From: Marine Group III euryarchaeote CG-Epi1
GTDB taxonomy: Archaea > Thermoplasmatota > Poseidoniia > MGIII > CG-Epi1
Direction: 5' to 3'
Length of the DNA stretch: 64,000 nucleotides
Assembly: GCA_001875345.1 (NCBI GenBank)
Contig: MIZA01000001.1
Span: 3,340 to 67,339, forward strand
Position numbers and translations under genes: made by a program. The notes beneath the pieces were generated by a model. That model had not been told where the DNA came from. It worked only from the letters and a program-made list of their open reading frames with translations, and searched no databases. How positions within the stretch are numbered: the stretch's first letter is position 1; every line of letters begins with the position of its first letter. Below, in pieces: positions 34,784-57,452 of this stretch.

Positions 34784-34795
34784 TTAATTATATTT
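34784..34795. promoter_or_regulatory. Shared central TATA element of a divergent leaderless gene pair
   Basis: ttaattatattt lies midway between the divergent start codons at 34764 (-) and 34818 (+), 20-23 nt from each. Confidence 0.35.
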
Positions 34796-34817: not shown

Positions 34818-35999
34818 ATGTTAGGTGGTTTTTACAAAAGAAATTTGCTTAATTTTTTAGAAAAAATTAAGTATGGAACTATTACAATTAACGATGATTT
34901 TTCAAAGACTTTTGGATCTGGAGAACCCAAAGTAACTATCGAGATAGTCTCACCAAGATTCTACAGAAGAACTGTACTAGGCGGCGACTTAGGATTCGCG
35001 GAATCTTATGCAAAGAGTGAATGGTTTACGGATAATTTGACCGATTTAATCACAATATTGATACTCAACAAAGATAACTTATCTGGATTGGATGTTAGAT
35101 GGAGCTTTTTGACAAAGATGCTTGCCAGGATTGGACATTGGAGAAGAAAAAATACTCTATCTGGAAGCAAAAGAAATATTCAAGAGCATTATGATTTAAG
35201 TAATGAAATGTTTACAACCTTTTTGGACGAAACAATGACATACTCATGTGGCTTTTTTGAAAAAGAGAGCGATTCACTTCACCAATCTCAATTAAATAAA
35301 ATTGACAAAATATTAGATAAAGCAGATATAAAAGAAGGACAGCATATACTTGAAATCGGATCTGGATGGGGTGCCTTAGCACGACGGGCGGTTGAAAAAA
35401 AAGGTTGTAAAGTAACTACAATAACTTTATCGGAAAGACAATATGAATATGTGAAAAGTATGATAGAAAAAGAAGACTTAAAGGATCATATTGATATACA
35501 ATTAATTGATTTCAGAAATATTAAAGGGAAATATGACCGCGTTGTCTCGGTTGAAATGATAGAGGCGATTGGCTTTGATTTATTTAATCCATATTTTGAA
35601 CGAATTGAAAAATTAATGAAACCAAATGGAACTGCTGTAATTCAGGCTATAACTTACCCAGATGAAAATTATGACACCTATAGAAAAGGCTGTGACTTCA
35701 TTCAGAAATTTATATTTCCCGGTAGCTTACTGCCCTCAGTAGGAGCCATGGAAAATTCTATCAATTTAACAGGACTAAAAGTTGATAACATAGAGAGAAT
35801 AGGTAGTCATTATGCTACCACTTTAAACATATGGAATAAAAATTTTAATGAAAATATAGACCGGATAAAAGATATGGGGTTTGACCAATATTTCATAAAT
35901 TTATGGAACTATTACTTTAGCTATTGTGAAGCTGGTTTCGCAAATAACACTATAGATGACGTCCAATTAGTAATCAAAGGAGGAATTGCAAATGCTTGA
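34818..35999 (+). CDS. cfa: Cyclopropane-fatty-acyl-phospholipid-synthase-family SAM methylase
   Basis: LGFAESYAKSEWFTDNL, HYDLSNEMFTTFLDETMTYSCGFF and ILEIGSGWGALA are canonical CFA-synthase (CMAS) motifs. Confidence 0.8.
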   Translation: MLGGFYKRNLLNFLEKIKYGTITINDDFSKTFGSGEPKVTIEIVSPRFYRRTVLGGDLGFAESYAKSEWFTDNLTDLITILILNKDNLSGLDVRWSFLTKMLARIGHWRRKNTLSGSKRNIQEHYDLSNEMFTTFLDETMTYSCGFFEKESDSLHQSQLNKIDKILDKADIKEGQHILEIGSGWGALARRAVEKKGCKVTTITLSERQYEYVKSMIEKEDLKDHIDIQLIDFRNIKGKYDRVVSVEMIEAIGFDLFNPYFERIEKLMKPNGTAVIQAITYPDENYDTYRKGCDFIQKFIFPGSLLPSVGAMENSINLTGLKVDNIERIGSHYATTLNIWNKNFNENIDRIKDMGFDQYFINLWNYYFSYCEAGFANNTIDDVQLVIKGGIANA

Positions 36000-36885
36000 A
36001 GCATACGAGAATAGATTACCTGGTGAAAAACTTTCATTACTTGTCAGTTTACCATTTATCTCAGTACATGTGGGCGCTCTGTTTGCTCTCACAATTTCAC
36101 CCTCTCCGTTTGCCCTTTTCATGGTTTTTTTGATGTATTTTATTCGAATGTTTGGAATAACTGCAGGTTTTCATCGGTTTTTTTCTCATAAGACTTTCAA
36201 AACTAGTCGTGCATTTCAATTTATTTTAGCTTACTTGGCTACTTCATCTGCACAAATGGGGCCTATCTGGTGGGCATCTCATCACAGGCATCATCACAAA
36301 TATACTGATGAAATCGAAGATCCGCATACGCCAACAATCAAAGGATTTTTTTGGGCTCACGTGGGATGGATAATGTCGCCTTCTAATGTCCCTACTAAAG
36401 AAGAATACGTCGGAGACCTGAAGAGATTCCCGGAACTTAAATTTTTAGATAAATATCATTACATCGCTCCATTTAGTATGGCTGTATTCTTGTTTGCATT
36501 AGGCGACTACATGGCAATACACTATAGTCAATACAATACAAACGGAATGGAATTATTAATGTGGGGATTTTTTGTTAGTACTGTAATTCTTTACCATGCT
36601 ACATTTACAGTTAATTCGGTTTGTCATGTTTTTGGATACAGGACTTATGATACAAAGGATGGAAGTGTCAATAATTGGATGGTTGCAATCTTAACTTTAG
36701 GAGAAGGATGGCATAATAATCATCACGCATTTCCGAACTCAGAGAGGCAAGGTCATAAATGGTACCAAATTGATATTTGTCATTATATTTTGTGGTCTTT
36801 ATCAAAAATAGGAATTGTCTGGGACATTCGCGATGTACCTGAAGACTCGATTATAGAAAAGCGCTACGGTTCAAATGTGGTTTAA
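35992..36885 (+). CDS. Membrane acyl-CoA/acyl-lipid delta-9 desaturase
   Basis: Three His boxes: HRFFSH, HHRHHH and HNNHH. I prefer ATG 35992 because it is preceded by aaaggagga (a GGAGG Shine-Dalgarno-like sequence about 8 nt upstream). The ORF track starts at TTG 35986. Confidence 0.85.
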   Translation: MLEAYENRLPGEKLSLLVSLPFISVHVGALFALTISPSPFALFMVFLMYFIRMFGITAGFHRFFSHKTFKTSRAFQFILAYLATSSAQMGPIWWASHHRHHHKYTDEIEDPHTPTIKGFFWAHVGWIMSPSNVPTKEEYVGDLKRFPELKFLDKYHYIAPFSMAVFLFALGDYMAIHYSQYNTNGMELLMWGFFVSTVILYHATFTVNSVCHVFGYRTYDTKDGSVNNWMVAILTLGEGWHNNHHAFPNSERQGHKWYQIDICHYILWSLSKIGIVWDIRDVPEDSIIEKRYGSNVV

Positions 36886-37900
36886 CCCACTCCTTGCAAG
36901 GGGATTAATCCCTGACTGGATTTTGAGAAGAGGCGTTAGAAGTCAGGGTAAAGAGCGACTAAATATGATGAACAAAGTTGATTCAACTAAAGAATATTCT
37001 AAGTTCATAAATGAGGCAAGTACTGGTAGCATCGCAGTGAATACTGATGATGCTAATAATCAGCATTATGAAGTTGATTCTGAATTTTTTAAATATTGCT
37101 TAGGTAAAAACCTGAAATATAGTTGCTGTTTTTGGGATGACAATACATTGGATTTAGATACTGCAGAAGATAATATGCTAGAAATTTACTCTGAGCGTGC
37201 TGAAATTACAGATGGTATGAATATTCTAGATATTGGATGTGGCTGGGGATCTCTTAGTCTATTCTTAGCACAAAAATATCCAAAATCTGAGATTACTGGC
37301 GTTTCTAATTCTTCCTCACAAAAAATATTTATTGATTCAGTAGCATCGAAAAGAAATATTTCTAATCTGAAAATAATAACTAGAGATATAAATGATTTTA
37401 GAACGCAAGAAAAATACGATAGAATTTTATCAATTGAAATGTTTGAGCATACCAAAAATACTAAAAAACTAATGAACTTGATCAATGATTGGTTAAATCC
37501 AAACGGGCTCTTTTTCATGCATGTTTTTGCGCATAAAGAAAATCCGTATTATTTCGACAGAGATCAAAATAATGCATGGATGGCAAAGTATTTTTTCACA
37601 GGAGGGATGATGCCAAATCATAATTTATTTAAAGATTTGAAATCAAATTTAGAATATCAGAAATCTTGGATGTTATCTGGAGATCACTATGAAAAAACAT
37701 CAAATGCATGGTTAAATAATATGGATCAAAACAAAAGAGAAATACTATCATTATTTGAAAGAAGCAATAGTAGTACTATGGCAAAAAGAAAATTCCATTT
37801 TTGGAGACTATTTTACATTGCTTGCGCAGAAATTTTTGGTTATGAAGATGGCAATGAATGGGTTGTCTCTCACCATTTATTCAAAAAGAGTGCAAAATGA
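36875..37900 (+). CDS. Second Cfa-like SAM-dependent methyltransferase
   Basis: HYEVDSEFFKYCLGKNLKYSCCFW and ILDIGCGWGSLSL. This is the CMAS fold with a different N-terminus. Confidence 0.7.
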   Translation: MWFNPLLARGLIPDWILRRGVRSQGKERLNMMNKVDSTKEYSKFINEASTGSIAVNTDDANNQHYEVDSEFFKYCLGKNLKYSCCFWDDNTLDLDTAEDNMLEIYSERAEITDGMNILDIGCGWGSLSLFLAQKYPKSEITGVSNSSSQKIFIDSVASKRNISNLKIITRDINDFRTQEKYDRILSIEMFEHTKNTKKLMNLINDWLNPNGLFFMHVFAHKENPYYFDRDQNNAWMAKYFFTGGMMPNHNLFKDLKSNLEYQKSWMLSGDHYEKTSNAWLNNMDQNKREILSLFERSNSSTMAKRKFHFWRLFYIACAEIFGYEDGNEWVVSHHLFKKSAK

Positions 37901-39150
37901 ATATTGGAATTATAGGTGCAGGAGTTGCAGGATTAACTGCTGCACATTTGCTTTCCGAAAAACATAATGTTACATTAATTGAAAAGCAAAAAAGGATAGG
38001 AGGCCATACAAATACCATAACTGTGGAAGAAAATGGTGAAAAAATTGGAGTTGATACTGGATTTATCGTTTTAAACGATAAAAACTATACGAATTTCAAG
38101 AAACTATTAAAAAAATTAGATGTTAAGGTAAGAAATACAGACATGTCATTTAGCTATTATGACGAAAATGATGGTTTTAATTATGCTGGAACTGGTATTT
38201 CAGGTTATTTTTCACAAAAAAGTAACTTATTTAGTCCAAAACACTATCGTTTTTTATTAAACGTTAAAAAATATTCAAAAAAAGCTGCGGCTGATGTCGC
38301 CAACAATTCCCTTAAAGATGAAAGTTTAGGAGAATATTTATCAAGAAATGATTTTCCAAAAGATATTATTGATAAATTTATGGTCCCGATGGGTGCTGCT
38401 GTTTGGTCTGGATCAAGAAAAGAAATCGCTAATTTTCCCGTAAAAATGTTTCTTAAATTTTTTGATAATCATGGAATCTTAGATCTAAATAATGCGCCTC
38501 AATGGCATACTGTCCTTGGTGGAAGCTATACCTATGTTCAAAAAATACTAGATGATTTTAGTGGCGAGATTATTAAGGGAAATGGTGTTAAAACAGTAGT
38601 TCGTAAGGAAGAGGGCGTGCTAGTTTCTCTAGACAATGGAGAAAAATTATCTTTTGATAAAGTAGTATGCGCATCTCACGCAGACCAAACTTATCGTATG
38701 ATAAAAGATATGACTGAACAAGAAGTGAAAATATTACAGCCTTGGGAATATTCAAAGAATAAAACTATATTGCACACTGACGTCTCAATTATGCCGCCTT
38801 CTAAATCTGCATGGGCTTGTTGGAATTATGTTAAAAATCGAAACAGTGAGGACCAAGATGATGTATCAGTCACCTATTACATGAACCGACTTCAAGGCTT
38901 AAACACTAAAAACGATTATCTTGTAACTCTCAATCCTAATAGAGATATACCCAAAAATAAAATAATCTATGAAACTGAGTATACACATCCAAAATATACT
39001 CACCAATCACTATCTACTCAAGAAGATATAATAAAGATAAACGGTTCAAATAATTTGTACTTTTGCGGCAGCTATTGCAGATATGGATTTCACGAGGATG
39101 CAGTGCTTTCCGCCGTAAGAGTTGCAGAAAAATTAGGCTGTGTATTGTGA
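37897..39150 (+). CDS. FAD-dependent oxidoreductase (COG2907 / amine-oxidase / phytoene-desaturase-like)
   Basis: MNIGIIGAGVAGLTAAHLL is the GxGxxG motif, and the C-terminus is FCGSYCRYGFHEDA. The start is taken at Met14 (ATGA overlap with the preceding stop). Confidence 0.75.
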   Translation: MNIGIIGAGVAGLTAAHLLSEKHNVTLIEKQKRIGGHTNTITVEENGEKIGVDTGFIVLNDKNYTNFKKLLKKLDVKVRNTDMSFSYYDENDGFNYAGTGISGYFSQKSNLFSPKHYRFLLNVKKYSKKAAADVANNSLKDESLGEYLSRNDFPKDIIDKFMVPMGAAVWSGSRKEIANFPVKMFLKFFDNHGILDLNNAPQWHTVLGGSYTYVQKILDDFSGEIIKGNGVKTVVRKEEGVLVSLDNGEKLSFDKVVCASHADQTYRMIKDMTEQEVKILQPWEYSKNKTILHTDVSIMPPSKSAWACWNYVKNRNSEDQDDVSVTYYMNRLQGLNTKNDYLVTLNPNRDIPKNKIIYETEYTHPKYTHQSLSTQEDIIKINGSNNLYFCGSYCRYGFHEDAVLSAVRVAEKLGCVL

Positions 39151-39998
39151 ATCTTAAATCTAGAATATATGAAGGTGCGATAACTCATGCGAGAACAAAA
39201 CCTGTAAAACATAACTTTTCTTTCCCAATCTATACTTTTGTAATAGACTTAGATGAACTGGATTTATTAGACAAGGAAATAAGGTTTTTTGGATATAACA
39301 GAGGATCTGTATTTACTTTGTACGATTCCGACCACTTAGGATCTGGTGACGGAAGCATAAAGCAAAAGCTAAAGAAATGGTTAATCAAATTTGGACACAA
39401 AGAAAAATATTCTACAGTAAAAATGATAACTACATTAAGAGTCTTTAAGCATACATTTAATCCTGTAATATTTTACTACTGCTTAGATTCTGAAAATAAT
39501 ATTGTTTATCACGTCGCTGAAGTTCACAATACTTTTGGTGAAGGTCATCTATATATCCTGAATAAAGGAAGAAAATCTAAAGTTGGAACTGAGTACTTAG
39601 TCCCGAAAGAATTTCACGTTTCACCCTTTAATAAAGTCGAAGGCGATTATAACTTCCATTTTTCTAAATTAAAAGAAAAACTTGATGTAAGAATAAATGT
39701 TTCAAAAGATAAAGAAAATTTTTTCTATGCAAGAATATCTGGGAATAGTAAAAAAATAACTAAATATAATTTAATCAAACTGGTCATGAGATACCCTATT
39801 CGCACACTAATGATTATTCCCAAGATATTAGCTGAAGCTGCAAAATTATATTATGTTAAAAATATGGAGATAATAGACAAGCCTGAGCCTTCTTCGAAAA
39901 AAACATATAATGCAACGTATCCTGCTTACATTAGTGATTTTCAGACCTCGGATGACGCCGATGGAATAGGAAGATGGTTTTTTAGTAAAATATATTAA
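39147..39998 (+). CDS. DUF1365-family protein
   Basis: SRIYEGAITHARTKPVKHNFSFPIYTFVIDLDELD matches the DUF1365 N-terminal signature. GTG at 39147 overlaps TGA at 39148-39150. Confidence 0.65.
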   Translation: MNLKSRIYEGAITHARTKPVKHNFSFPIYTFVIDLDELDLLDKEIRFFGYNRGSVFTLYDSDHLGSGDGSIKQKLKKWLIKFGHKEKYSTVKMITTLRVFKHTFNPVIFYYCLDSENNIVYHVAEVHNTFGEGHLYILNKGRKSKVGTEYLVPKEFHVSPFNKVEGDYNFHFSKLKEKLDVRINVSKDKENFFYARISGNSKKITKYNLIKLVMRYPIRTLMIIPKILAEAAKLYYVKNMEIIDKPEPSSKKTYNATYPAYISDFQTSDDADGIGRWFFSKIY

Positions 39999-41583: not shown

Positions 41584-42234
41584 ATGGAAAAGTTAGTAGC
41601 TCTGTCTGGAGTCGTAAAATCGTACGGTACCACCAGCGTACTCACAGGAATTGATCTGGACATTGCAAAAGGCGAATTGATTGTTTTACTCGGCCCTTCC
41701 GGAAGCGGAAAAACAACACTTTTGAATTTGATTGCAGGGATAGATACTGCGAATAGTGGCGAAATATTGGTACTTGGAAAAAATCTGTCTGAGATGACTG
41801 ATTTGGAATTAACTGAATACAGAAGAGATTCAGTAGGATATATATTCCAATTTTATAATTTATTACCAAACCTAACAGTTATGGAAAATGCTTCATTAGG
41901 ATTAGAACTAAAAGGAGAAGAATTGGACTATGCAAAAATAATTTTAGAGAAGGTAGGTCTTGAGGATAAATCACAGCGTTTTCCAGCCCAACTTTCTGGT
42001 GGAGAACAGCAACGAGTTGCGATAGCAAGAGCTATGGCAAAAACCCCAGCACTTATTGTAGCCGATGAACCGACTGGAAATCTAGATAAAAATAATTCAC
42101 AATCTGTAAGAAATCTTTTCAAAGAAATATCGAATGATGCAACTATTATTATTGCAACACATGACAACGATTATCTTGAAATTGCAGACAAGGCTTATGA
42201 GTTAAATGAAGGGAAACTAATTAAAATTAAATGA
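41584..42234 (+). CDS. ABC transporter ATP-binding protein (MacB/LolD type)
   Basis: GPSGSGKTT is Walker [15 protein letters not shown] is the signature motif, and [12 protein letters not shown] is Walker B. Confidence 0.9.
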
Positions 42235-44678
42235 GCATCATATTCAAAAAATTTCAACGAGATCTATACTCTGAATTACCAAAAATCGCAGTCTCCATTA
42301 TTATTATTTCAATGGGAATTGGAGGATTTATTACATTCTTTCAGGTTTCAGACAACATCAAAGAAACTGTAGACTCGCAATATGACGAAATGAATCTAGG
42401 AGATTCATGGATAAATTTACAACCAATACCAATACCTACTCCTGAGGAATTGATTGAGTATAGCAAGCAAAATGATGATAATAGTATCAATGAAATTTTA
42501 CCTCAAATAGACGTAATGCAGCCCAGACTGCATCTTTATGGTAAATCTGAAGGTGAAAATGGACCTATAATTATTGAAATCTTAGGGCTACCTGATGAGC
42601 AAAAAATAAACAAATTGAGAATTACTGAAGGTGGAAATTTAGCGACTAATGCCGAGTCTGGAAATATTCCTGTTGTAGTTGAATCGAGGTTTGAAAAATA
42701 TCACGGTTATGGATTAGGTGATACCTTTAATCTAAGTATTGTTAAAATCGATCAAGAAGCGATTGAGTTTGAAACCATAAATGTAACTGTAGAAGTTGTT
42801 GGAGTCGCAGTATCTGCTGAATATTTCCTTATCACTGGAAATCAGGGTGTTTTTGTACCTAGGCAATCGACAATTGGAGTAATGTTTGTAAATTTACCAA
42901 TATTGCAAAATGTAACTGGATTCGACGGAATGATTAATCAAGTTAGTATCAAATCAGACAGTAACGTTGATGAATTATTTAGTGGAACTCCTCTAGAAAA
43001 TGTAATTATTTCTTCATATGAAAAGGAAAATATGGAATCTTATATGATTCTAAATAATGATCAAAAAGGTGTCAAACAGGTAACACCAAAACTTGCTGGT
43101 ATTTGGCTAATAATTGCAGGTTGCACAATCTCTCTAAACCTGTACAGAATAATACAATCTCAGAAGAAACAAATAGGCGTAATGAGAGCTGCTGGAATGA
43201 CATCTAATGAAGTTATGTCTTTCTATACCTGGTATGGAATCTTCATTGGTGCTATCGGTTCTATAGGCGGAATTATTGCTGGATTTGGAATTTCTGTCTA
43301 TATAACGTACCAATATTCTTTAGCTACCGAAATACCTGGAATCGTTTATGGTTTATCTCCAAGATTAGTACTATTTGGAATTGCTTTGAGTATGATATCA
43401 AGTTTAGTATTCATAATTTTGCCAGTTAGAAAAGCTGCTAACATTGCAATAACTGATTCTATGTCTCCAGATATTCCTAGTTTTAAAGATTCAAAGATTA
43501 CGGAAATAAGCTCGAAACTATCATTATCTTTAAGATTGGCATTTAGAAACTTTTCAAGGAACAGAACAAGAACCATGCTAACTACTGTTGGCCTTTCCCT
43601 TGCCTTAGTAACGCCGTTTGCATTGGGCGTTATACTATCAAGTACAGAAAATGCGGTGGAAACTAGCTTTGATCTTCCAGGCTGGGATGGAACTGCAGTT
43701 TTCGACTCATTCCAAGAACAAAATGTGACAATTGACGAATTGGAAAGTAGAGATTACATTAGTAGCGCAGACCCTGTTTTATCTTGGGAAATTGGAGCAT
43801 TTAATGAACGTATTGTTGTAATTGGATCTAACTATGGCAATGTTTTTAGTTTACCAACTGAAAATGAATTTAATCAATTTACAACTAATAACGAAATAAT
43901 TATAGATTCTTTGTTTGCTATGAGGAACGATTTAGAGGTAAATGATATTTTTGAAGCTTCGTTATTAGGCCAAAAAAAGAACTTAACAGTAGCTGCTATT
44001 CACACACAGATTCTTGGTGGAGGTTTCATGAGCCTTGAAGGTCTACAGATATGGCTACACGAGTGGGAAGATGAGATAAAATCTTTAGCTGTTAACTCTT
44101 CAGTTCTTAACGAAACCGAAATTGAAAAATTACCTGACTTGCCAATGAATCCAATTAGTGGAGTATATCTAACTGGAGATGCTACAAGACTAAACAACGA
44201 ATCTCCTGACTACATGGTTGCAGTTATTGCTAAAGATGACCTAAAAGGTCAGGTTGATAAGTTAATGGAACTGTTTACATTTTTTATCAATTTATATTAT
44301 GGTTTAGCAGCTGTAATGGCATTTTTAATTATTGCTAACACTGCTACAATAAATATGCTGGAAAGAGAAAGGGAGATGGCAACACTAAAGACCTTAGGAA
44401 CTAGTGACGTTATTCTGAGTAAGGCCACATCAGCCGAGAATTTTGTGATGGGAACTATCGCAGGAGTTACAGGAATTATAATAGGTTACCCTATAGCTGT
44501 ATGGTTGTTACAAACATTTACGTATGAGATTTACTATGTTCCAACTTATTTTCCAAGCGGATTACCTATTGTAATGATTGTATGTGTTATTCTCTTAAGT
44601 GTATCTGCAACAATTCCCTCATGGATTAGGTTAAGAAATATGAACCTTGGAAATTTGGTCCGGTCCATAGAAAGATGA
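42231..44678 (+). CDS. ABC transporter permease with duplicated FtsX/MacB-type domains
   Basis: 815 aa with two 4-TM FtsX-like blocks, each preceded by a large extracytoplasmic domain. The gene overlaps the ATPase gene by 4 nt. Confidence 0.8.
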   Translation: MSIIFKKFQRDLYSELPKIAVSIIIISMGIGGFITFFQVSDNIKETVDSQYDEMNLGDSWINLQPIPIPTPEELIEYSKQNDDNSINEILPQIDVMQPRLHLYGKSEGENGPIIIEILGLPDEQKINKLRITEGGNLATNAESGNIPVVVESRFEKYHGYGLGDTFNLSIVKIDQEAIEFETINVTVEVVGVAVSAEYFLITGNQGVFVPRQSTIGVMFVNLPILQNVTGFDGMINQVSIKSDSNVDELFSGTPLENVIISSYEKENMESYMILNNDQKGVKQVTPKLAGIWLIIAGCTISLNLYRIIQSQKKQIGVMRAAGMTSNEVMSFYTWYGIFIGAIGSIGGIIAGFGISVYITYQYSLATEIPGIVYGLSPRLVLFGIALSMISSLVFIILPVRKAANIAITDSMSPDIPSFKDSKITEISSKLSLSLRLAFRNFSRNRTRTMLTTVGLSLALVTPFALGVILSSTENAVETSFDLPGWDGTAVFDSFQEQNVTIDELESRDYISSADPVLSWEIGAFNERIVVIGSNYGNVFSLPTENEFNQFTTNNEIIIDSLFAMRNDLEVNDIFEASLLGQKKNLTVAAIHTQILGGGFMSLEGLQIWLHEWEDEIKSLAVNSSVLNETEIEKLPDLPMNPISGVYLTGDATRLNNESPDYMVAVIAKDDLKGQVDKLMELFTFFINLYYGLAAVMAFLIIANTATINMLEREREMATLKTLGTSDVILSKATSAENFVMGTIAGVTGIIIGYPIAVWLLQTFTYEIYYVPTYFPSGLPIVMIVCVILLSVSATIPSWIRLRNMNLGNLVRSIER

Positions 44679-44773
44679 TTTTTAGTATATAAATGTTTTA
44701 AAAAATACTAAATTTTAATCTTCCTTTAAATATCTGTCAGTAATTATTTAAACTATTTTGTCAAAGGCACAAT

Positions 44774-47425
44774 ATGGAACAACTAGATGTCCTTGCTAAA
44801 CAAGTAAATCGTAACCCTTCTGTAGTAATTGGAGCTATAATGATTGTAACTGCAATCATGTTTACTATTTTAGTCACAGCACCTGAGGCTGGAGACCCAA
44901 GTCAGTCTGGATTCATACCTGAAAATGAAGTTGTTGACGCTATGACCGATATTGGTGAAAAGTTCAGTACTGAATACTCCGTTGTAACGCTAATAAAATC
45001 TGATGATGTAATATCCTCATCAACATTTGTCGATATATTAGAACTTCAGATAGCATTCACTGAGGACGAAGATATTTCTAACAGTTTAACCGACCAGCAA
45101 ACAAAGGCAAACAGTATTATTTCCTTACCAAACTCATTAGCTTCACAATTCAATGTCAGTAGTGCTAATTTATCTGAATTAAAATCTCTTTACGAGGGCA
45201 AAAGTGATCAGGAAATTAAATCTGCACTACAAAATGCAATTGAAGACCCTTATGCAGGAGCTGCAATTATCCCATTACTTGGAGAATTTGATGAAAACTC
45301 TACAACTGCCAAATCTACAATAATTACGCTGAAGCTGGACAACAGTAACCGTGAAGGTGAAAACTCAGTTCAAGCTCTAGAAAGAGTTGCTAAGGTAGAA
45401 AACGTAATGGGCACTATTTCAATGGACTATCGTGAAAACGTATTCACTGGAACAAGTGCATATTCTCTAGGTCAAGGCGCAATGGATGCTGAAATTAACT
45501 CTCAATTTGAAGAAGATATTGGAAGCAGACTAATGCCATTTGTTTTAGGTTTCATATTACTAGTATTATATTTAACTTTCAGATCTAGAATTGATATGCT
45601 ACTGACTCTGGTAGCTCTATTCATTTCCATAATTTGGACCTTTGCTTTTGGAGTTATACTTGATTTTGAACCTAGTTTTTTCTTAACTATAATACCTATA
45701 CTTTTGATTGGATTAGGCGTAGATTATGGAATCCACCTTACTATGAGATACAGAGAAGGTGTTGTTGAAAATGGTGATATTGACAAGGCCAATAAGACTG
45801 CAATTATTTCTGTTGGTTCTGCTTTATTATTTGCTACAATTACAACCATGATTGGTTTCTTTTCAAATCTATCCTCTGAAATAGTACCAATAAAAGAATT
45901 TGGTATACAAACTGGATTAGGTATTTTATCTGCATTTATTATCTTTGTAACTTTCCTTCCTGCCTGTAGAATAGTTATTGATAGGTACTACGAAAGCAAA
46001 GGTAAAAATGTTCTTTCTCAAACAAATATTGATATTATTAAAGCTAAAAAAATGGGGAGCGAAAGTGATGCAATATCCGATAAATTTATGAGTATTGGAT
46101 CTATTTTGGCTCTGAAGTATCCTGAAAAAACACTTGCATTTTTTGTAGTTTTAACACTTATTGCAGGGTATGGTGGAAGCCAAATTTCATCTGAATTCAA
46201 TGCTGAAGACTTCTTGCCGCAAGAAGTAGAAGTTGTAAAACAATTTAACTACTACCAAGATAATTTTGGAGCTTCGGCTGGTGAAGTATCATTCATTTAC
46301 ATTAGTGGCGAAAATTTAGCTACTAATCAAGTTTTCCAAGCTATTGATAATACGCAAGAACAACTTTTGATCGATGATACTTATGTTTCTGGGGATCCAA
46401 ATAACATCTTTTCAGCGTTAAATGGTATGAGAAATCTAGCTTCAAGTGAATCTGGATATTTCTATAATGCAACTTTTGCTGAAATGTTTAATTCAAAAGA
46501 TACAGACAATGATGGAGTACCAGATACCGATGCAGATGTAAAGGAATTATTAGATTGGGTATTCGTAGGAGAAGGTGTAAATCAACCTTCCATGATTAAA
46601 AATTTCATTTATTACGATGAAGAGACTGGAGAATATACTGTTTCGTACATAATGCTTACAACCAAATCTAAGAATGTATTTTATGTTGAGGTAAGTGATG
46701 AATTAAATAAAGACATTAAACCTCTTGAGGATATAGAAACTAGTAGTAAAATTAAGGTAGTTGCTACTGGGCAACCTCCAATATTTGTTGTAGTTATGGA
46801 CACAATAACTGCAACTATGATTCAATCGATTTTGTACACTATTGCATTGTCATCTTTAGTTTTGACAGCAGTTTTCTGGTTTAACGATGGTCAACCTCTA
46901 CTAGGCATTCTAACCATTATTCCAGTTTTATTAGTTCTTACATGGATTTTGGGAACAATGGTAGTTATTGGATATACTCTTAATGTAATGACTACGCTTA
47001 TTGGGGCTTTAACTATTGGCTTGGGTGTTACTTATGCAATACATATTTCACATAGATTCATAGAAGAGTTAGAAGAACACCATTCCTTAGAAAAGGCAGT
47101 CAATAATACTGTGAAAAATACTGGTTTCTCACTATTTGGTGCTGCAATGACTACTGTTTTATCTTTCGGAGTTTTATCCCAATCGATATTAGTTCCAATG
47201 CAGCAATTCGGTACAATTACTGCTTTAACAATTTTGTTTTCATTCTTGTCTTCTGTTTGGGTTCTACCAAGTATTTTAGTTCTCTGGGCTAGACAAGCTG
47301 GATTAACTGAGCATTCTAATGAACATGAAAATAAGATTCCGGAGCCAAAAGAAAAGCTCGAAAACGATGATATTGAACCAAAGGTAAAAATGGCTACAAC
47401 TGATGACGAGTCAGAAGAAGAATAA
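44774..47425 (+). CDS. RND-superfamily MMPL/HAE3-type exporter
   Basis: Two 6-TM halves carry GLGVDYGIHLTMRYREG and GLGVTYAIHISHRFIEE. The C-terminus is acidic. Confidence 0.75.
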   Translation: MEQLDVLAKQVNRNPSVVIGAIMIVTAIMFTILVTAPEAGDPSQSGFIPENEVVDAMTDIGEKFSTEYSVVTLIKSDDVISSSTFVDILELQIAFTEDEDISNSLTDQQTKANSIISLPNSLASQFNVSSANLSELKSLYEGKSDQEIKSALQNAIEDPYAGAAIIPLLGEFDENSTTAKSTIITLKLDNSNREGENSVQALERVAKVENVMGTISMDYRENVFTGTSAYSLGQGAMDAEINSQFEEDIGSRLMPFVLGFILLVLYLTFRSRIDMLLTLVALFISIIWTFAFGVILDFEPSFFLTIIPILLIGLGVDYGIHLTMRYREGVVENGDIDKANKTAIISVGSALLFATITTMIGFFSNLSSEIVPIKEFGIQTGLGILSAFIIFVTFLPACRIVIDRYYESKGKNVLSQTNIDIIKAKKMGSESDAISDKFMSIGSILALKYPEKTLAFFVVLTLIAGYGGSQISSEFNAEDFLPQEVEVVKQFNYYQDNFGASAGEVSFIYISGENLATNQVFQAIDNTQEQLLIDDTYVSGDPNNIFSALNGMRNLASSESGYFYNATFAEMFNSKDTDNDGVPDTDADVKELLDWVFVGEGVNQPSMIKNFIYYDEETGEYTVSYIMLTTKSKNVFYVEVSDELNKDIKPLEDIETSSKIKVVATGQPPIFVVVMDTITATMIQSILYTIALSSLVLTAVFWFNDGQPLLGILTIIPVLLVLTWILGTMVVIGYTLNVMTTLIGALTIGLGVTYAIHISHRFIEELEEHHSLEKAVNNTVKNTGFSLFGAAMTTVLSFGVLSQSILVPMQQFGTITALTILFSFLSSVWVLPSILVLWARQAGLTEHSNEHENKIPEPKEKLENDDIEPKVKMATTDDESEEE

Positions 47426-49721: not shown

Positions 49722-50089
49722 TTTTGTGCAACCACCTTAAATTCTACTGAAATGGGAGTAGGTAAAGAGCCTACTTCAATGGTAGTTCTAGTAACTTCAA
49801 ATCCATCAAGATATTCTGCATAAATTTGATTAAACCTTGAAAAATCATCTTTCATATTCGTTAAAAAAACCATTATATCTACTACGTTTGACATAGACAA
49901 ATTAGCGGCTTCCAAAATAGCTTTTACATTACTAAAAACTGCATGTGTTTGGTCTTCGATTCCCGCTGGAATTTCGTCAGTCTCAGGATGTCTTGGACCC
50001 ACTCCAGATAGAAACACCAAATCGCCAGCTTCTTTAGCGTGAACATATTTTCCCACTGGTTTTGCTGCTTTGTCAGTATTAATCGCCAT
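49718..50089 (-). CDS. RidA/YjgF-family (2-aminomuconate-deaminase-like) protein
   Basis: GDLVFLSGVGPR...IEDQTHAVFSNVKAILEAA...VVDIMVFLTNM...RTTIEVGSLP is the canonical RidA pattern. Confidence 0.8.
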   Translation of the reverse strand: MAINTDKAAKPVGKYVHAKEAGDLVFLSGVGPRHPETDEIPAGIEDQTHAVFSNVKAILEAANLSMSNVVDIMVFLTNMKDDFSRFNQIYAEYLDGFEVTRTTIEVGSLPTPISVEFKVVAQK

Positions 50090-51038
50090 CTCTTTCCTCT
50101 AATGGGCCCATTCCAGGTTGATCATAGAAATCTAAAACTTCCCTATCTCCTTTATAGAATTCAGGATCATCTTCATCATACTCGAGATCTCCTGCAGTAT
50201 CTTCTGCTGGGGTTAATGTTACAACTGCTGCACCTGTTCCACAGATGGGCTCATAAGCTAAAACATTCCCATCGTATAAATTATTTTGACCCATAATAGA
50301 AGCCATAATCCAAAATGGTTTAAAACTTACAACTTTTGGAACTCTTGCTTCGTTATGGAATTGTCTAGATAACTGAGAAACATCTTCTAACCTTCCTTTT
50401 TCTAAATATTCAAGGAATTTTGAATTCCATTCATGATCTTTGAGTGAATGAATTCTATCTTCCTTAGGGTCTATCTCTACAGTATGCAACCTATTTGACA
50501 AAGCTGAAACAACAACTACTGCAGCTTTTTTGCCACTAGCATCAATAGCATCTCGTACTGATTTGCCTAAAACTATACTCTCTGCCCGATTTGCATACAT
50601 ATTACTTGATACAATTATGGCAGGTAATTTATTTTCTGGATTTAATAATTTGAGAGCTACAATTGAGCCAGTATCTATTGGAAATCCATAATAAGAAACT
50701 GTACGGGCATGTAAACCACGCTCTTTACACTTAGTTACAGCTAATTCTGCAAATTCCGGATCCATGCGAAATTTATAATCTATACTGCCCAAGTCATGGA
50801 ATTCTTCGTCAACATAGGTCCATTCAGGTTCAGGATATGCTTGAATTTGGTGACCTAAAATTGAAGGCCAAAAAGTACTGTATAGTACTAAAATTTCAGC
50901 CCCACTTTCTTCAAGTTCTACTCTAGCTTTTTCATAAGCATCACGAACTCTTTGCCATCCTTCATTTTTTTCAGGACAAAGAAGTGGATGAGGCAGGCCT
51001 GGAACTAAAATTCCTTTACAGACGTTATCATCTCTCAT
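50079..51038 (-). CDS. Class III (LigB-type) extradiol dioxygenase subunit, AmnA/AmnB-like
   Basis: The N-terminal GILVPGLPHPLL resembles the LigB-family aPHpP start. It is a paralogue of the upstream gene, which it overlaps by 4 nt. Confidence 0.55.
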   Translation of the reverse strand: MRDDNVCKGILVPGLPHPLLCPEKNEGWQRVRDAYEKARVELEESGAEILVLYSTFWPSILGHQIQAYPEPEWTYVDEEFHDLGSIDYKFRMDPEFAELAVTKCKERGLHARTVSYYGFPIDTGSIVALKLLNPENKLPAIIVSSNMYANRAESIVLGKSVRDAIDASGKKAAVVVVSALSNRLHTVEIDPKEDRIHSLKDHEWNSKFLEYLEKGRLEDVSQLSRQFHNEARVPKVVSFKPFWIMASIMGQNNLYDGNVLAYEPICGTGAAVVTLTPAEDTAGDLEYDEDDPEFYKGDREVLDFYDQPGMGPLEERDGD

Positions 51039-51928
51039 ATCTTGGCCTTTTTAGGATCCCAACCGATTATTGCATTGCCAGTGCCAATTACAGTTCCATA
51101 AGCATGTACTGTAGCCTTGTAATCTGGAAAATCTAATGCACTCATTAACCAAGTCAAACAACCCGCTTCAGTTTCCGCTACAGTTTGCTCAGTGAAATCA
51201 GGCATCAAATCAATTAATTCTTTAGTTTTACCTTCTTTCATTAGATTTATCATTTTCATATCCCAAAGATATTGATTATGATTAGTTATATGCTCCTTAC
51301 TCATGTCTTCAGGAATTTCAGGCTCTGTGGTAAAATGTCGATGAGATAATGAATTACTTGAAAGTAGTAAGGCTTTCTTACCTGAAGCTTCAACGGCTCT
51401 TCGGGTTGCTTTCCCTAATTTTATCATATTAGCTTGCATTAATTCTGAATTAAAATAGAATTTCGAACGATTTGATGAAATGCAAACTATTGGTTTATCC
51501 CACTTCGGATTGACTAAATGACCGCTGGTTATAGTACCGTAATCTATTCTAAAATCTGGATTTTCCATCATCTTCACTAATAGGCCTTCTTCTGCGGCAC
51601 TGTCGTGAATGGCCTTAGACAATTCAACATCTACAGTTAAGTCATAATTATATCTAAATATGTTTGGAAATATAGGATCTACTGATAGTGATTTGAATTT
51701 CTCAACTCCTAGGAAATGAGTACCTACAAATGTCGCCCAGTGGGGTGTGTGAATTATTATAACATCGTAATCTTTTTCAGATAAACTATCTCTTAATCTT
51801 TCATATCCCCAACGAAGTTCTTCCCATCCACCTTCTGCGGTAGCTTCGTTTTGAGGTGGGTTCTCTGCATAAACAAGGTGCGGAGGATGTGGTGCTAGGG
51901 CTCCCATTACAATTTCCCCTTTAGACAT
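51035..51928 (-). CDS. Class III (LigB-type) extradiol dioxygenase subunit, AmnB-like
   Basis: GALAPHPPHLV and IIIHTPHW are LigB-family metal-site motifs. Length is about 300 aa. Confidence 0.6.
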   Translation of the reverse strand: MSKGEIVMGALAPHPPHLVYAENPPQNEATAEGGWEELRWGYERLRDSLSEKDYDVIIIHTPHWATFVGTHFLGVEKFKSLSVDPIFPNIFRYNYDLTVDVELSKAIHDSAAEEGLLVKMMENPDFRIDYGTITSGHLVNPKWDKPIVCISSNRSKFYFNSELMQANMIKLGKATRRAVEASGKKALLLSSNSLSHRHFTTEPEIPEDMSKEHITNHNQYLWDMKMINLMKEGKTKELIDLMPDFTEQTVAETEAGCLTWLMSALDFPDYKATVHAYGTVIGTGNAIIGWDPKKAKI

Positions 51929-51964
51929 GTTTCTACAATTAAACCCAGTTATAAGACAATTAGC

Positions 51965-52933
51965 TTAGTTGATATTGAACAAAAACCAACGTAATATTTG
52001 CTTTTCTAGCCAATAGGATGTATCTCTGGAAACAAAAGCTACATGTCCGCCTTTTTCTGTTGTAAAAAAATTTAGAAAAGGGGAAGATAATTCCTTATCG
52101 GAAGGAAAGCAATCTGGAGGCGATAGTGGATCATCAAGACTATTTAACATGAAAGTGGGGTGATCTATTTCTGTCAAATGTTTTGCTGAGCTAATTTCTT
52201 CATAGAAACTTGAGGCGTCAGGAAAATTAAAATATGGTGCTGTTATTTTCTCATCTAATTCATACAATGTCTTAGATTCAAAGAAAGCATCGTAATCTAC
52301 TTCATCGGGAAATTTTGCTTTCTTAAGTTTATATTTCTCTATAAGTGAGGATACAAAAGATTGCTCATACACTCTTGAAAAACCCTTTGCCATAGCTGTA
52401 ACTCCGGGTTCAATTCTATAATTACCTGAAATTAATGCTGAAGCTAATATTCTTGGCAGATTAGATTTAGGCCTTGAAATGCAATTAGCTAAAATATTAG
52501 CTCCAAAACTATAGCCCACTAAAAAAATAGGCCGATTTTGGTCCTGGTTGCGTACGTACCATATTAATTGTTCTAAATCTTCAGTTTTTCCTGCATTATA
52601 TGTGTAAAATGTATCATTAATAACTCCGGAGCAAGAACGATAATTAATTGCATAGCCGCTCCAACCTAATCTTTGAATTATAGTCATTAATCTAGTAATG
52701 TGAGTTGAGTTTGAGCTCCCTTCAAAACCATGACACGCTATTACTGCTGGACCTTTACCATCAACAATATCAACATCGAAAAAATCGTTATCTGGAGTTT
52801 TCAGCCTTTTTCTACGATAATTTATCTTCTCTCCTTTAAGAAAAATACCCGCATAGATTGATTGCGCATGTGGGTTTCTTAGATGATACGGTAGGCGAAA
52901 TGAAGATAGTTTAAAATTTGCTTTTGATATCAT
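51965..52933 (-). CDS. Alpha/beta hydrolase (YheT/ABHD3-like)
   Basis: VIACHGFEGSSNSTHI and the nucleophile elbow LVGYSFGAN. Confidence 0.65.
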   Translation of the reverse strand: MISKANFKLSSFRLPYHLRNPHAQSIYAGIFLKGEKINYRRKRLKTPDNDFFDVDIVDGKGPAVIACHGFEGSSNSTHITRLMTIIQRLGWSGYAINYRSCSGVINDTFYTYNAGKTEDLEQLIWYVRNQDQNRPIFLVGYSFGANILANCISRPKSNLPRILASALISGNYRIEPGVTAMAKGFSRVYEQSFVSSLIEKYKLKKAKFPDEVDYDAFFESKTLYELDEKITAPYFNFPDASSFYEEISSAKHLTEIDHPTFMLNSLDDPLSPPDCFPSDKELSSPFLNFFTTEKGGHVAFVSRDTSYWLEKQILRWFLFNIN

Positions 52934-52946
52934 TTCTGTAAATTAT

Positions 52947-54380
52947 TTACTCTTTGACACAAATATTTACAGGCTGTGAGAAAAAACTTAGGCTCCAACG
53001 TCCTCCTTCTGTTCCAACACCACTATCCTTTACACCACCGAACGGAACTCGTAAATCTCGATGAAGCCAAGTATTGACCCAAACCATCCCTGTTTCGATC
53101 TTTTCAGCTAATTCTTTTCCTCTTGTAGAATCTGAAGTCCAGACCGAACCTGCTAGCCCGTAATCTGTACAATTTGCCATTTCAATAGCTTCATCATCTG
53201 TTTTAAATTGGTGCAGAGTAACAACGGGGCCAAATATTTCCTCATTAGAAGTTCTACTCTGATAATCAAGATTTGATACTACTGTTGGTTCCAAAAAGGC
53301 CCCTTTATCAAATGGAGAATCTAAATTCGGTATTTTTCCTCCACACAATATTTCTCCGCCCTCTCTTTGGGCTAGATGAATGTAAGATTCCACTTTGTCT
53401 CTATGAGAAAAAGATACTAAAGCACCTAAATCGGAATCGTCTGATGAGGGGTCTCCCACTTTCATGCTCTTAATGTAAGTTACAAATTTTTCTACAAATT
53501 CGTCCCAAATTTTATGTGAAATTAGAATTCGACTACCACATAAGCAAACTTGGCCTTGATTAAGAAAACCCGATCTTGCAATTTCCGGAATAGCTCTATC
53601 AATGTTTACATCATCTAAAACAATTGTTGCATTCTTACCACCCAACTCTAAACTTAATTTTTTGAACATAGGGGCTGCTGTTTCAGCAACTTTCTTACCT
53701 GTAATTGTTCCTCCTGTAAAAGAAATCAAATTAACTTTCGGATGTGATACTATTGTTTGACCGGCTTCATGTCCTAAACCATGAACTATGTTAACAACAC
53801 CCTGCGGCAAGCCTATTTCGTGTATAACTTCTGCAAGAAGATTTGCCGTTAACGGCGTAAGTTCAGAAGGTTTTGCGACTACTGTATTGCCCATAACAAT
53901 CGCGGGTGCTATTTTCCACGATAGAAGATATAAGGGAAGATTCCAAGGAGTTATCAAACCTGCCACTCCCACAGGTTTGTAAATTACGTGATTAGTTGCA
54001 TCATCCATCTCAAACGTTTCACCAACAAAGTCTTTACTGAATTCTGCAAAAAAACGGAAATTGGCAACAGACCTTGATGCATCCACCGCCCTTGCAAGCT
54101 TAATTGGTTTTCCAGTATCTAATGACTCTAGTTTAGCAATCTCTTCTGCACGTGATTCTAATGCATCTGCTATCTTTCCTAGCCAAACTCTTCTATCTTC
54201 TAAATTCAAATTACTCCAATATTCGCGAGCATTGTCTGCAGCCAATACTGCTTTTTGGACATCATCTGGTTTCGAACGTGGAATATTGGCTATAATTTTC
54301 CCTGTAGCTGGATTAATATCTTCAATAGTTTCTTCAGTGCTTACAAAATTACCATTTACGTAATTTTGAACCTTAATCAT
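52947..54380 (-). CDS. NAD-dependent aldehyde dehydrogenase (2-amino/2-hydroxymuconate-semialdehyde dehydrogenase-like)
   Basis: LELGGKNA contains the catalytic Glu, GQVCLCGSRILI contains the catalytic Cys, and EEIFGPV is also typical. Length is 477 aa. Confidence 0.8.
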   Translation of the reverse strand: MIKVQNYVNGNFVSTEETIEDINPATGKIIANIPRSKPDDVQKAVLAADNAREYWSNLNLEDRRVWLGKIADALESRAEEIAKLESLDTGKPIKLARAVDASRSVANFRFFAEFSKDFVGETFEMDDATNHVIYKPVGVAGLITPWNLPLYLLSWKIAPAIVMGNTVVAKPSELTPLTANLLAEVIHEIGLPQGVVNIVHGLGHEAGQTIVSHPKVNLISFTGGTITGKKVAETAAPMFKKLSLELGGKNATIVLDDVNIDRAIPEIARSGFLNQGQVCLCGSRILISHKIWDEFVEKFVTYIKSMKVGDPSSDDSDLGALVSFSHRDKVESYIHLAQREGGEILCGGKIPNLDSPFDKGAFLEPTVVSNLDYQSRTSNEEIFGPVVTLHQFKTDDEAIEMANCTDYGLAGSVWTSDSTRGKELAEKIETGMVWVNTWLHRDLRVPFGGVKDSGVGTEGGRWSLSFFSQPVNICVKE

Positions 54381-56715: not shown

Positions 56716-57452
56716 TATATTGAACCTGTCCTTCCACCATCTACTGGAATACTGGTTCCTCTCACAAAACTAGCCGCAGGAGATGAAAGAAAGGCAACTA
56801 CTTGGCCCAATTCGGAAGGTGATGCGAGACGCCCTTCTGGAACTGTGCTTAACCAAGAATTTTCTACTTCTTCTTCGCTTATTCCCTTCTGCTTTGAAAG
56901 TGTTTCTTTTAATTCTGTTAGTCTTTCAGTATCTGTGAAGCCCGGTAATACATTGTTGATAGTAATTTGTGGAGGTAATTCTTTGGACATTGTTTTAGAC
57001 CAAGAAGCCATAGCGCCCCTAATGGTATTACTGACTCCTAAGCCAGGAATAGGTTCCTTAACTGAAGTAGAAATAATATTAACTATTCTTCCATAATTTA
57101 ATGATTTCATGCCTTCAAAAAGTAATTGAACTAAAGTCTGTGAAGCTAAGACATGTCTAAGAAAGGCCTTTTCAAAATCATACGGCTGAGCGCTAATAAG
57201 CGGACCCGACGGAGGACCTCCTGAATTATTTACCAAAATGTGAAACGGACCATTAGCCTCAATTTCCTCAGTGACTAAGGATTTTAAGGAATCCAAATCT
57301 TCGAGATCGCAAGAAATATTGCCAGATCCAGAGGCGCTTCTAGATAGAATTACCACATCCGCCCCATTCTCTCTGAGTGCATTTACAGTAGCTTTTCCAA
57401 TACCACTTGTACCTCCACAAACTAGTGCTCTTTTACCTTTTAAGTCAATCAA
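56715..57452 (-). CDS. Short-chain dehydrogenase/reductase
   Basis: TTG start. LVCGGTSGIGKAT is the TGxxxGxG motif and NNSGG is also present. Length is 245 aa. Confidence 0.8.
   Translation of the reverse strand: MIDLKGKRALVCGGTSGIGKATVNALRENGADVVILSRSASGSGNISCDLEDLDSLKSLVTEEIEANGPFHILVNNSGGPPSGPLISAQPYDFEKAFLRHVLASQTLVQLLFEGMKSLNYGRIVNIISTSVKEPIPGLGVSNTIRGAMASWSKTMSKELPPQITINNVLPGFTDTERLTELKETLSKQKGISEEEVENSWLSTVPEGRLASPSELGQVVAFLSSPAASFVRGTSIPVDGGRTGSI

Follow-up and report, generated by a model that had tools for sequence, protein, structure and literature searches.

A five-gene operon of Marine Group III archaea that resembles bacterial gene sets for methylated furan fatty acids

Methylated furan fatty acids are made in Rhodobacter sphaeroides and Rhodopseudomonas palustris by the enzymes UfaM (RSP2144/RPA2569), UfaD (RSP1091/RPA2571), UfaO (RSP1090/RPA2570, a DUF1365 protein) and FufM (RPA0924) (PMC7380195). 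UfaM methylates phospholipid-bound cis-vaccenate to 11-methyl-12-trans-18:1, and UfaD, an NAD/FAD-binding domain protein that uses O2, yields the 10,12-diene. UfaO then closes the ring to the furan, for which O2 donates the oxygen atom, and FufM, at only 26% identity to UfaM, methylates the monomethyl furan acid to the dimethyl form (PMC7380195). Only these two alphaproteobacterial UfaO/UfaD pairs have been characterized, and the distribution of DUF1365 has been given as Bacteria and Eukarya (PMC7380195). Here we analyze a 64,000-nucleotide stretch of contig MIZA01000001.1 from the Marine Group III (MGIII) euryarchaeote CG-Epi1, hereafter the window, in which a five-gene operon at positions 34818-39998 probably represents a complete homologue set for the synthesis of methylated furan fatty acids from saturated acyl chains.

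Related gene sets are known from other organisms. The Cfa-like gene linked to the R. palustris cluster is ufaM by genetics (PMC7380195). In Halomonas, ufaD, ufaO and ufaM are consecutive, and the ufaM gene yields 11-methyl-octadec-12-enoate in Escherichia coli, where canonical cfa yields cyclopropane acids (PMC12089945). Plants carry the same four enzyme classes as the window in AtUFAMD1 (an FAD-Cfa fusion, AT3G23510), AtUFAO1 (DUF1365, AT1G30130) and LIME1/AtFUFM1 (AT4G33110), lipid-droplet proteins whose 26-38% identity to the bacterial enzymes is similar to the distances of the window proteins (PMC10940516). The plant set differs in its eukaryotic host, unlinked genes and fused FAD and Cfa domains, and its function is likewise unproven (PMC10940516). 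The original prediction for this locus, made from the letters of the window, named the UfaM/UfaD/UfaO/FufM pathway, and its account agrees with the published one (PMC7380195).

The operon consists of five co-directional open reading frames (ORFs) with overlapping ends (Table 1), and the ORFs and all four junctions read as had been predicted. The desaturase ATG at 35992 lies 5 nucleotides ahead of the methylase 1 TGA (35997-35999). The methylase 2 ATG at 36875 creates an 11-nucleotide overlap (36875-36885) with the desaturase gene, whose TAA occupies 36883-36885. Methylase 2 and the FAD gene share an ATGA at 37897-37900, and at 39147-39150 a GTGA joins the FAD gene stop to the GTG start of the DUF1365 gene, which is thereby translationally coupled to the gene for the UfaD homologue. 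On six other contigs, gene callers run independently arrived at these five genes too, with the predicted internal starts ATG 37897 and GTG 39147. The families originally assigned, namely a Cfa-type methylase, a three-His-box desaturase, a second methylase, an FAD oxidoreductase and a DUF1365 protein, hold by Pfam; the suggested COG2907 likeness of the FAD protein finds an echo in one 90%-cluster member that carries the Tara label COG2907/K06954. None of the five proteins reaches an NCBIfam equivalog cut-off. The family E-values and the conservation of the block in at least eight species are far beyond chance.

Table 1. Features of the operon and of the region ahead of its first gene (window coordinates)
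Feature	Position	Strand	Basis
Candidate archaeal TATA-like box TTAATTATAT	34784..34793	+	read from sequence
Methylase 1, CMAS/Cfa-family S-adenosylmethionine (SAM) methyltransferase, 393 aa	34818..35999	+	PF02353 CMAS 4e-86
SCD-type membrane di-iron acyl desaturase, 297 aa	35992..36885	+	FA_desaturase 2.5e-22
Methylase 2, CMAS-family, coclaurine-N-methyltransferase-like, 341 aa	36875..37900	+	PF02353 CMAS 1e-40
FAD-dependent oxidoreductase, UfaD homologue, 417 aa	37897..39150	+	Amino_oxidase/NAD_binding_8
DUF1365 protein, UfaO homologue, 283 aa, GTG start	39147..39998	+	DUF1365 PF07103 1.5e-70, whole model

We located a reference locus (L023) among metagenome contigs by exact 25-nucleotide primer match, using primers in the supplement of PMC7380195; it was the sole match. 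On this 3.0-Mb contig (70% G+C), 11 published primers match exactly at the expected places, and rpoE-chrR lies divergent from genes for a 430-residue FAD protein and a 249-residue DUF1365 protein (750 bp, as published), followed by a third gene of 1206 bp. Because both the primers and the gene layout match, we take the locus to be R. sphaeroides ufaD-ufaO. The third gene, RSP1089, was ruled out as a Cfa-like candidate, since Pfam identifies it as a major facilitator superfamily (MFS) transporter.

The window FAD protein is 34% identical to R. sphaeroides UfaD over 415 of 417 residues (E 4e-90, 271 bits), while its best solved structure, the amine oxidase LkcE, gives only 127 bits (9e-36). It is 36-44% identical to FAD proteins of bacterial clusters and bears its GxGxxG motif as GAGVAG (residues 7-12, 37915-37932). 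The window DUF1365 protein is 28% identical to R. sphaeroides UfaO over 243 residues (E 4e-30) and scores 237.9 bits over the whole PF07103 model, compared with 242.8 bits for UfaO. For scale, UfaD is 37-47% identical to proteobacterial homologues in operons linked to sigma E/ChrR, and UfaO likewise 28-43%. The order of ufaD followed by ufaO, with a GTGA overlap in the window and a 10-nucleotide spacer in R. sphaeroides, recurs in the bacterial loci L007, L008, L009, L021 and L022. We predict that the FAD protein is an O2-dependent desaturase that makes a conjugated methyl-diene, and that the DUF1365 protein is an O2-dependent enzyme that forms the furan ring.

The window DUF1365 protein retains every residue that is invariant in an eight-sequence alignment including R. 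sphaeroides UfaO (H14, R16, D62, R98, E125, N128, T129, Y136, K154, VSPF158-161 and Y168). A separate alignment of 39 database homologues gives a largely overlapping invariant set. Trees for DUF1365 and for the methylases were built by neighbor joining with bootstrap. In the DUF1365 tree of 45 proteins, the archaeal members come together in a single clade with 100% bootstrap. An Acidobacteria sequence is its sister (66%), and support rises to 99% for the group that also takes in one more metagenomic sequence; gammaproteobacterial sigma E-linked proteins branch still further off than UfaO. This tree places the archaeal proteins inside the single family that holds UfaO and outside its small characterized subclade. 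The proposed kinship with UfaD and UfaO is supported: both window proteins are full-length homologues, with the DUF1365 protein in a subclade other than that of alphaproteobacterial UfaO.

Sequence comparison with known structures reveals no solved relative of the DUF1365 protein. Its AlphaFold model (pLDDT 88.5, pTM 0.88) is mostly beta with two C-terminal helices, and a Foldseek comparison of the model with the PDB returned no significant fold neighbor (best E 0.07, TM <0.25) and hence no lead on the mechanism. From the model, the UfaO fold appears to be structurally uncharacterized. The archaeal and acidobacterial DUF1365 proteins have in common a C-terminal extension of about 30 residues, TY[ND]ATYP.Y[IV]S[DE]F..., at 39900-39998 of the window and 8700-8843 of L009. 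This extension is absent from R. sphaeroides UfaO and from the other proteobacterial homologues, and it is modeled with low confidence by AlphaFold.

Methylase 1 has as its best solved relatives the cyclopropane fatty acid (CFA) synthases (2.4e-55). With E. coli Cfa (6bqc) and the Lactobacillus acidophilus enzyme (5z9o) it shares the CMAS fold family, length, the SAM motif EIGSGWG, and the conserved active-site Glu and Tyr. It differs in being only 29% identical to E. coli Cfa and in falling below the NCBIfam CFA-synthase cut-offs, with 260 bits against 600 for NF053839 and 241 against 400 for NF008686. It differs also in two motifs: where the solved CFA synthases 5z9o, 7qos and 6bqc have VGMFEH and an [IL]H motif (LIHGI or LLHTI), methylase 1 has VEMIEA (residues 245-250, 35550-35567) and IQAIT (275-279, 35640-35654), such that His is replaced by Gln and GMFEH by EMxEA. 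All seven cluster-linked Cfa-like proteins compared, methylase 1 included, carry SxEMxEAxG and [IV]Q..T, whereas the three solved CFA synthases, E. coli Cfa among them, carry SVGMFEHVG and [IL]H. We take the CFA-synthase His to bind the bicarbonate required to close the ring. Provided that this role is right, its change to Gln fits a methylase whose reaction ends in an alkene and not in a cyclopropane, and the Gln/EMxEA combination could be a signature that separates UfaM-type methylases from cyclopropane synthases.

Methylase 1 is 34-43% identical to Cfa-like proteins that follow DUF1365 in bacterial clusters, and it groups with cluster-linked proteins of Pseudoalteromonas, Acinetobacter and Acidobacteria, apart from E. 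coli Cfa, with 100% bootstrap. In at least 33 records, its best plasmid homologues are separated from the FAD gene by 0.3-1.2 kb, the span of a single DUF1365 gene. No proxy for Halomonas ufaM was found among plasmids. Methylase 1 is predicted to be an olefin methylase of the UfaM type.

Methylase 2 is 26.6% identical to methylase 1 and matches the coclaurine N-methyltransferase (CNMT) of Coptis (6gkv) at 1.7e-69, compared with 1.7e-28 for E. coli CFA synthase. We presume that Arabidopsis AT4G33110 is likewise CNMT-like. FufM is reportedly 37.9% identical to this plant protein (PMC10940516). The best 120 matches listed in a protein search were all archaeal, with at least 71% identity and no outgroup among them; bacterial relatives were obtained by plasmid tblastn. 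These relatives are 38-42% identical to methylase 2, are encoded near FAD-DUF1365-Cfa clusters, and form a clade with it at 100% bootstrap. In many Rhizobiaceae replicons they lie at most 1-3 kb from the FAD gene, in Acinetobacter they are inside the operon, and in Cupriavidus they stand beside the cluster. We predict that methylase 2 is the FufM-type second methylase. The earlier claim of two methylases is thus upheld at the level of subfamily, to which structure matches and the tree assign both proteins as expected.

The desaturase carries three His boxes, HRFFSH at residues 61-66 (36172-36189), HRHHH at 98-102 (36283-36297) and HNNHH at 241-245 (36712-36726). Its best solved relatives are the stearoyl-CoA desaturases (SCDs), with E-values of 6e-36 for mouse SCD1 (residues 22-289) and 1.4e-35 for human SCD1, and delta-9 regioselectivity is typical of this family. 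It is 47-49% identical to desaturases encoded inside the Acidobacteria and Acinetobacter clusters, and is predicted to supply the cis-monoene.

Taken in order, these activities would form the following pathway. The SCD-type desaturase would introduce a cis double bond, nominally at delta-9, and methylase 1 would use SAM to place a methyl group on an olefinic carbon with a shift of the double bond, giving a trans methyl-alkene. With O2, the FAD enzyme would then produce the conjugated methyl-diene. From this the DUF1365 enzyme would form the furan ring by inserting one O2-derived oxygen atom, and methylase 2 would methylate the ring a second time. Starting from 16:1 delta-9, the products would be of the 7M5/7D5 type, while prior elongation to 18:1 delta-11 would lead to 9M5/9D5. 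Such lipids might serve as membrane scavengers of singlet oxygen and radicals in sunlit water. A photoprotective role is plausible because the bacterial clusters lie in singlet-oxygen regulons (sigma E/ChrR, photolyase) and because some of the archaeal carriers bear epipelagic CG-Epi labels.

The two characterized loci resemble the window operon in different respects. In R. sphaeroides the FAD gene immediately precedes DUF1365 with the same Pfam architecture as in the window, but the operon is divergent from rpoE-chrR, continues with the MFS transporter gene RSP1089 and two other genes, and includes neither methylase nor desaturase; ufaM (RSP2144) is unlinked, and the substrate cis-vaccenate is made without a desaturase, unlike the window operon with its own. 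In R. palustris, RPA2571-RPA2570-RPA2569 (ufaD-ufaO-ufaM) and fufM cover the same four enzyme classes as the window and a methylase is linked to ufaD-ufaO, but the gene order differs, there is no desaturase, and fufM is unlinked, directly after RPA0923.

Closer matches in gene content come from other bacteria. All five window families occur in one co-directional operon on Acinetobacter piscicola plasmid pYH12207-1 (L021), in the order lipocalin, acyl-CoA desaturase, FAD oxidoreductase, DUF1365, Cfa-family, DUF1295 and class I SAM methyltransferase. Identities to the window proteins are 47% (desaturase), 34% (FAD), 28% (DUF1365), 37% (Cfa) and 42% (methylase 2); this operon is bacterial, plasmid-borne and uncharacterized, has the lipocalin and DUF1295 genes in addition, and differs in order. 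A cluster in an Acidobacteria metagenome-assembled genome (MAG; L009) holds DUF1295, FAD, DUF1365, CMAS and FA_desaturase genes, and photolyase and DUF523/DUF1722 genes lie close by. Four of the five window proteins (DUF1365, Cfa, FAD and desaturase) have their nearest non-archaeal relatives here, at 43-49% identity, and in the Cfa tree L009 branches next to the archaeal clade as its sister (68% bootstrap). Both blocks, [FAD-DUF1365] and [Cfa-desaturase], are kept in L009 in the opposite order to the window, and it has DUF1295 but no CNMT-like methylase. The archaeal order, [Cfa-desaturase]-methylase 2-[FAD-DUF1365], is thus a permutation of bacterial blocks. The gene set had been predicted to be self-contained, desaturase included, and all five families are indeed present; it is not unique to the archaeon, as Acinetobacter plasmids have the same set and the Acidobacteria MAG has it minus methylase 2.

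With all five families in an Acinetobacter operon and four in the Acidobacteria cluster, the nearest outgroup, we consider the gene set to be bacterial and horizontally acquired. In the list of DUF1365 homologues, identity drops from 75% within the archaeal clade to 43% with nothing between, a gap that fits a single acquisition by one lineage. These comparisons indicate that the window operon was acquired from bacteria by an epipelagic MGIII lineage (Thermoplasmatota, Poseidoniia). The bacterial module is larger than the four published enzymes and often includes a desaturase, DUF1295 and the CNMT-like methylase, which helps to annotate many bacterial genomes. In Rhizobium (L020), Acinetobacter (L021) and Cupriavidus (L022), the CNMT-like methylase gene always directly follows the DUF1295 gene, which encodes a steroid-reductase-like membrane protein. 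Genes for lipocalin, chalcone-isomerase-like, DUF2878 and SDR proteins recur around the FAD-DUF1365-Cfa core in the same three loci. The rpoE-chrR pair adjoins the cluster in L023, L007, L008 and L020. Neither the window nor any archaeal locus contains sigma or anti-sigma genes, and no regulator is evident; as the archaeon has no sigma factors, regulation of the operon must work some other way.

The host is a Marine Group III archaeon. Seven species-representative loci emerged from a search of GTDB at one genome per species. They come from independent studies, all have archaeal titles and several are named as MGIII, among them 'uncultured marine group III euryarchaeote isolate AH-321-L02', 'MGIII-CG-Epi1' and 'A2.5-MGIII-7'. 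AH-321-L02 (L017) is a single-cell genome, its name placed by NCBI in Archaea, Thermoplasmatota, and it carries the cluster on a 61-kb contig. The five genes have identical order in every locus that spans the region. The species loci L013, L014, L016, L018 and L019 and the related contig L011 share the window's flanks at 82-99% identity, with an S15 peptidase gene upstream and PD-(D/E)XK, ABC, FtsX and MMPL genes downstream, and L015 and L017 have other flanks. At 32-36% G+C, the cluster matches the DNA around it. Members of the 90% clusters of the five proteins, which number 183-298 and derive from Tara and other ocean metagenomes, include proteins named for Poseidoniales, Poseidoniia or Thermoplasmatota archaea, and some archaeal carriers have the epipelagic labels CG-Epi5 and CG-Epi1. 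The prediction of an archaeal host was correct and can be narrowed: the host is specifically MGIII, and neither a generic nor a Marine Group II (MGII) archaeon.

Purifying selection on all five genes is strong. Their ORFs are intact, and the ratio of nonsynonymous to synonymous substitution (dN/dS) is 0.014-0.086 across the operon in comparison with the L018 species, the only one for which values are quoted because synonymous sites are saturated against the more distant L011 and L017. Flanking genes give a dN/dS of about 0.045 against L011.

Several side observations concern the host assignment. Rfam and tRNA scans detected no rRNA or tRNA genes in the window, which also lacks an exclusively archaeal marker, and the same scans of ten related loci gave nothing useful for host assignment. 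In the single-cell genome the cluster is flanked by ferrochelatase, GNAT and glycyl-tRNA synthetase genes; the synthetase is dimeric, a type compatible with archaea and not exclusive to them. Two genes downstream of that cluster, L017 12044-12826 (- strand) encodes a fusion of an acyl-CoA-binding (ACBP) domain with a SnoaL-like domain. A DUF1365 protein with 86% identity, P0113, is deposited as 'MAG: Pelagibacterales bacterium'. Because the context is archaeal everywhere else, this protein probably comes from a mis-binned MGIII contig.

A number of points weigh against a furan product in MGIII. The steps proposed for this organism, with their regiochemistry, lipid carrier, mono- or dimethyl product and physiological role, are predictions from gene content and homology. 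Identity to the characterized UfaO and UfaD is only 28-34%, UfaO falls in another DUF1365 subclade than the archaeal proteins, and both methylases are assigned by subfamily, synteny and identities in the literature. Absent here is DUF1295, found ahead of the methylase-2-like gene in each bacterial cluster examined (L020-L022), along with the lipocalin, SDR and sigma E/ChrR regulator genes of bacterial clusters. Ester-linked acyl lipids as the substrate in MGIII are a presumption, and a Pfam scan of the window's ORFs, covering all but five of those with 150 residues or more, turned up no plsC, plsY, gpsA or fab gene. Finally, by analogy, Cfa-family enzymes of the methylase 1 type could make cyclopropane rings instead.

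This last point leads to the main rival, acyl-chain modification that stops short of the furan or differs from it. Methylase 1 might be a synthase for cyclopropane, or for a methylene or methyl branch, with the FAD and DUF1365 proteins producing a cyclopropene, a conjugated diene or another oxidized derivative and methylase 2 finding its substrate elsewhere. Methylase 1 is after all a full-length CMAS protein with CFA synthases as its best solved relatives, in plants FAD-Cfa fusions of this family produce cyclopropane fatty acids, and there are but two characterized UfaO/UfaD pairs, from which the archaeal proteins are separated by subclade. We nonetheless regard such a product as unlikely, though it deserves serious attention, for the same methylase misses the CFA-synthase cut-offs, has Gln for the conserved His and EMxEA for the GMFEH of three solved CFA synthases, and falls among cluster-linked genes that include two with demonstrated UfaM activity. 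Moreover, the coupled UfaD-UfaO pair is under purifying selection and has no known role beyond the diene-to-furan steps. It is also conceivable, but improbable, that the enzymes act on scavenged exogenous fatty acids bound for degradation or on unsaturated isoprenoid chains of ether lipids, in which case the operon would tell nothing about acyl membrane lipids of MGIII. In keeping with such substrates, MGII and MGIII are described as organisms that carry beta-oxidation genes and degrade fatty acids and lipids, no acyltransferase or fab gene occurs among the scanned window ORFs, and an acyl-CoA-binding-domain protein is encoded near the cluster in the single-cell genome. Conversely, the building of a methylated furan is biosynthetic and contains no beta-oxidation step, SCD-family desaturases use acyl-CoA or acyl lipids and not isoprenoids, and UfaM, UfaD, UfaO and FufM act on phospholipid-bound acyl chains (PMC7380195).

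The archaeal aspect itself would vanish if the contig were bacterial and mis-binned, or if the cluster were a recent transfer in decay. The 'Pelagibacterales' label on one 86%-identical DUF1365 protein, a window without rRNA genes, tRNA genes or an exclusively archaeal marker, and bacterial nearest outgroups for all five genes would agree with a bacterial contig. Against this stand seven species-representative genomes with archaeal titles from independent studies, including the single-cell AH-321-L02, flanks that are 82-99% identical in most of these genomes, and a G+C content equal to that of the surroundings; decay is contradicted by intact ORFs and dN/dS values similar to those of flanking genes. 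We thus give this explanation very little credence, and favor a furan-forming operon in an MGIII host.

The significance of the operon lies in the membrane lipids of these archaea. MGII and MGIII have no glycerol-1-phosphate dehydrogenase; MGII carries PlsC, glycerol-3-phosphate dehydrogenase and putative genes for fatty-acid synthesis. Water dominated by MGII yielded no known archaeal polar lipids, and a bacterial-like or mixed membrane has been proposed from few genes (PMC6461757, PMC6962369). An operon whose sole known substrates are unsaturated phospholipid acyl chains, intact and under strong purifying selection in at least eight MGIII species, provides independent and testable evidence that MGIII hold and tailor fatty-acyl lipids. 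Its presence suggests that MGIII archaea carry and tailor fatty-acyl lipids of bacterial style. More tentatively, and with the odds in our view somewhat against so specific a picture, epipelagic MGIII membranes may hold ester-linked desaturated acyl chains that are partly converted to mono- and dimethyl furan acids as a shield against singlet oxygen.

We found no paper that links furan fatty acids, UfaO or DUF1365 to archaea. Since all parts are orthologous to a known bacterial module, the novelty lies in the archaeal host and what it implies for lipids, and the UfaO/DUF1365 family is extended from Bacteria and Eukarya to Archaea. If the furan reading is true, this would be the first furan-lipid pathway in Archaea, direct genetic evidence of Poseidoniia crossing the 'lipid divide', and an unrecognized source, in the plankton, of the furan fatty acids that build up in marine food webs. 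For lipid chemists, methylated furan acids or their methyl-diene precursors would be the biomarkers to seek in MGIII-rich water.

Expression signals are sparse. The A/T-rich TATA-like box is centered about 29 nucleotides upstream of the first ATG, and a direct reading of the sequence shows no Shine-Dalgarno motif ahead of gene 1; together these would fit a leaderless archaeal operon transcript, which is possible. The desaturase gene has GGAGG 8 nucleotides upstream of its ATG. A sigma-70 promoter scan found 28 candidates against 27.3 expected from shuffles, hence no enrichment, and a terminator scan gave no excess over shuffles.

Elsewhere in the window, positions 1-23038 (- strand) form an island of low G+C content (28-34%) with genes for nucleotide sugars and glycans, including LicD, GT1/GT4 glycosyltransferases, two DegT aminotransferases, two GFO/IDH/MocA oxidoreductases, epimerases/dehydratases, a nucleotidyl transferase and an ATP-grasp protein. 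Judged by these families, it looks like a cell-surface glycosylation island. The block at 50079-58385 (- strand) encodes two LigB-type extradiol dioxygenase subunits, an alpha/beta hydrolase, an aldehyde dehydrogenase, asparaginase II, a luciferase-like monooxygenase, an SDR protein and tryptophan 2,3-dioxygenase, and looks like one for aromatic or tryptophan catabolism. The stretch at 41584-47425 (+ strand) encodes a MacB-type ABC ATPase, an FtsX-family permease (815 residues) and an MMPL/Patched-type RND transporter (883 residues). These transporter genes follow the cluster in most archaeal loci, and a link to lipid export is possible.

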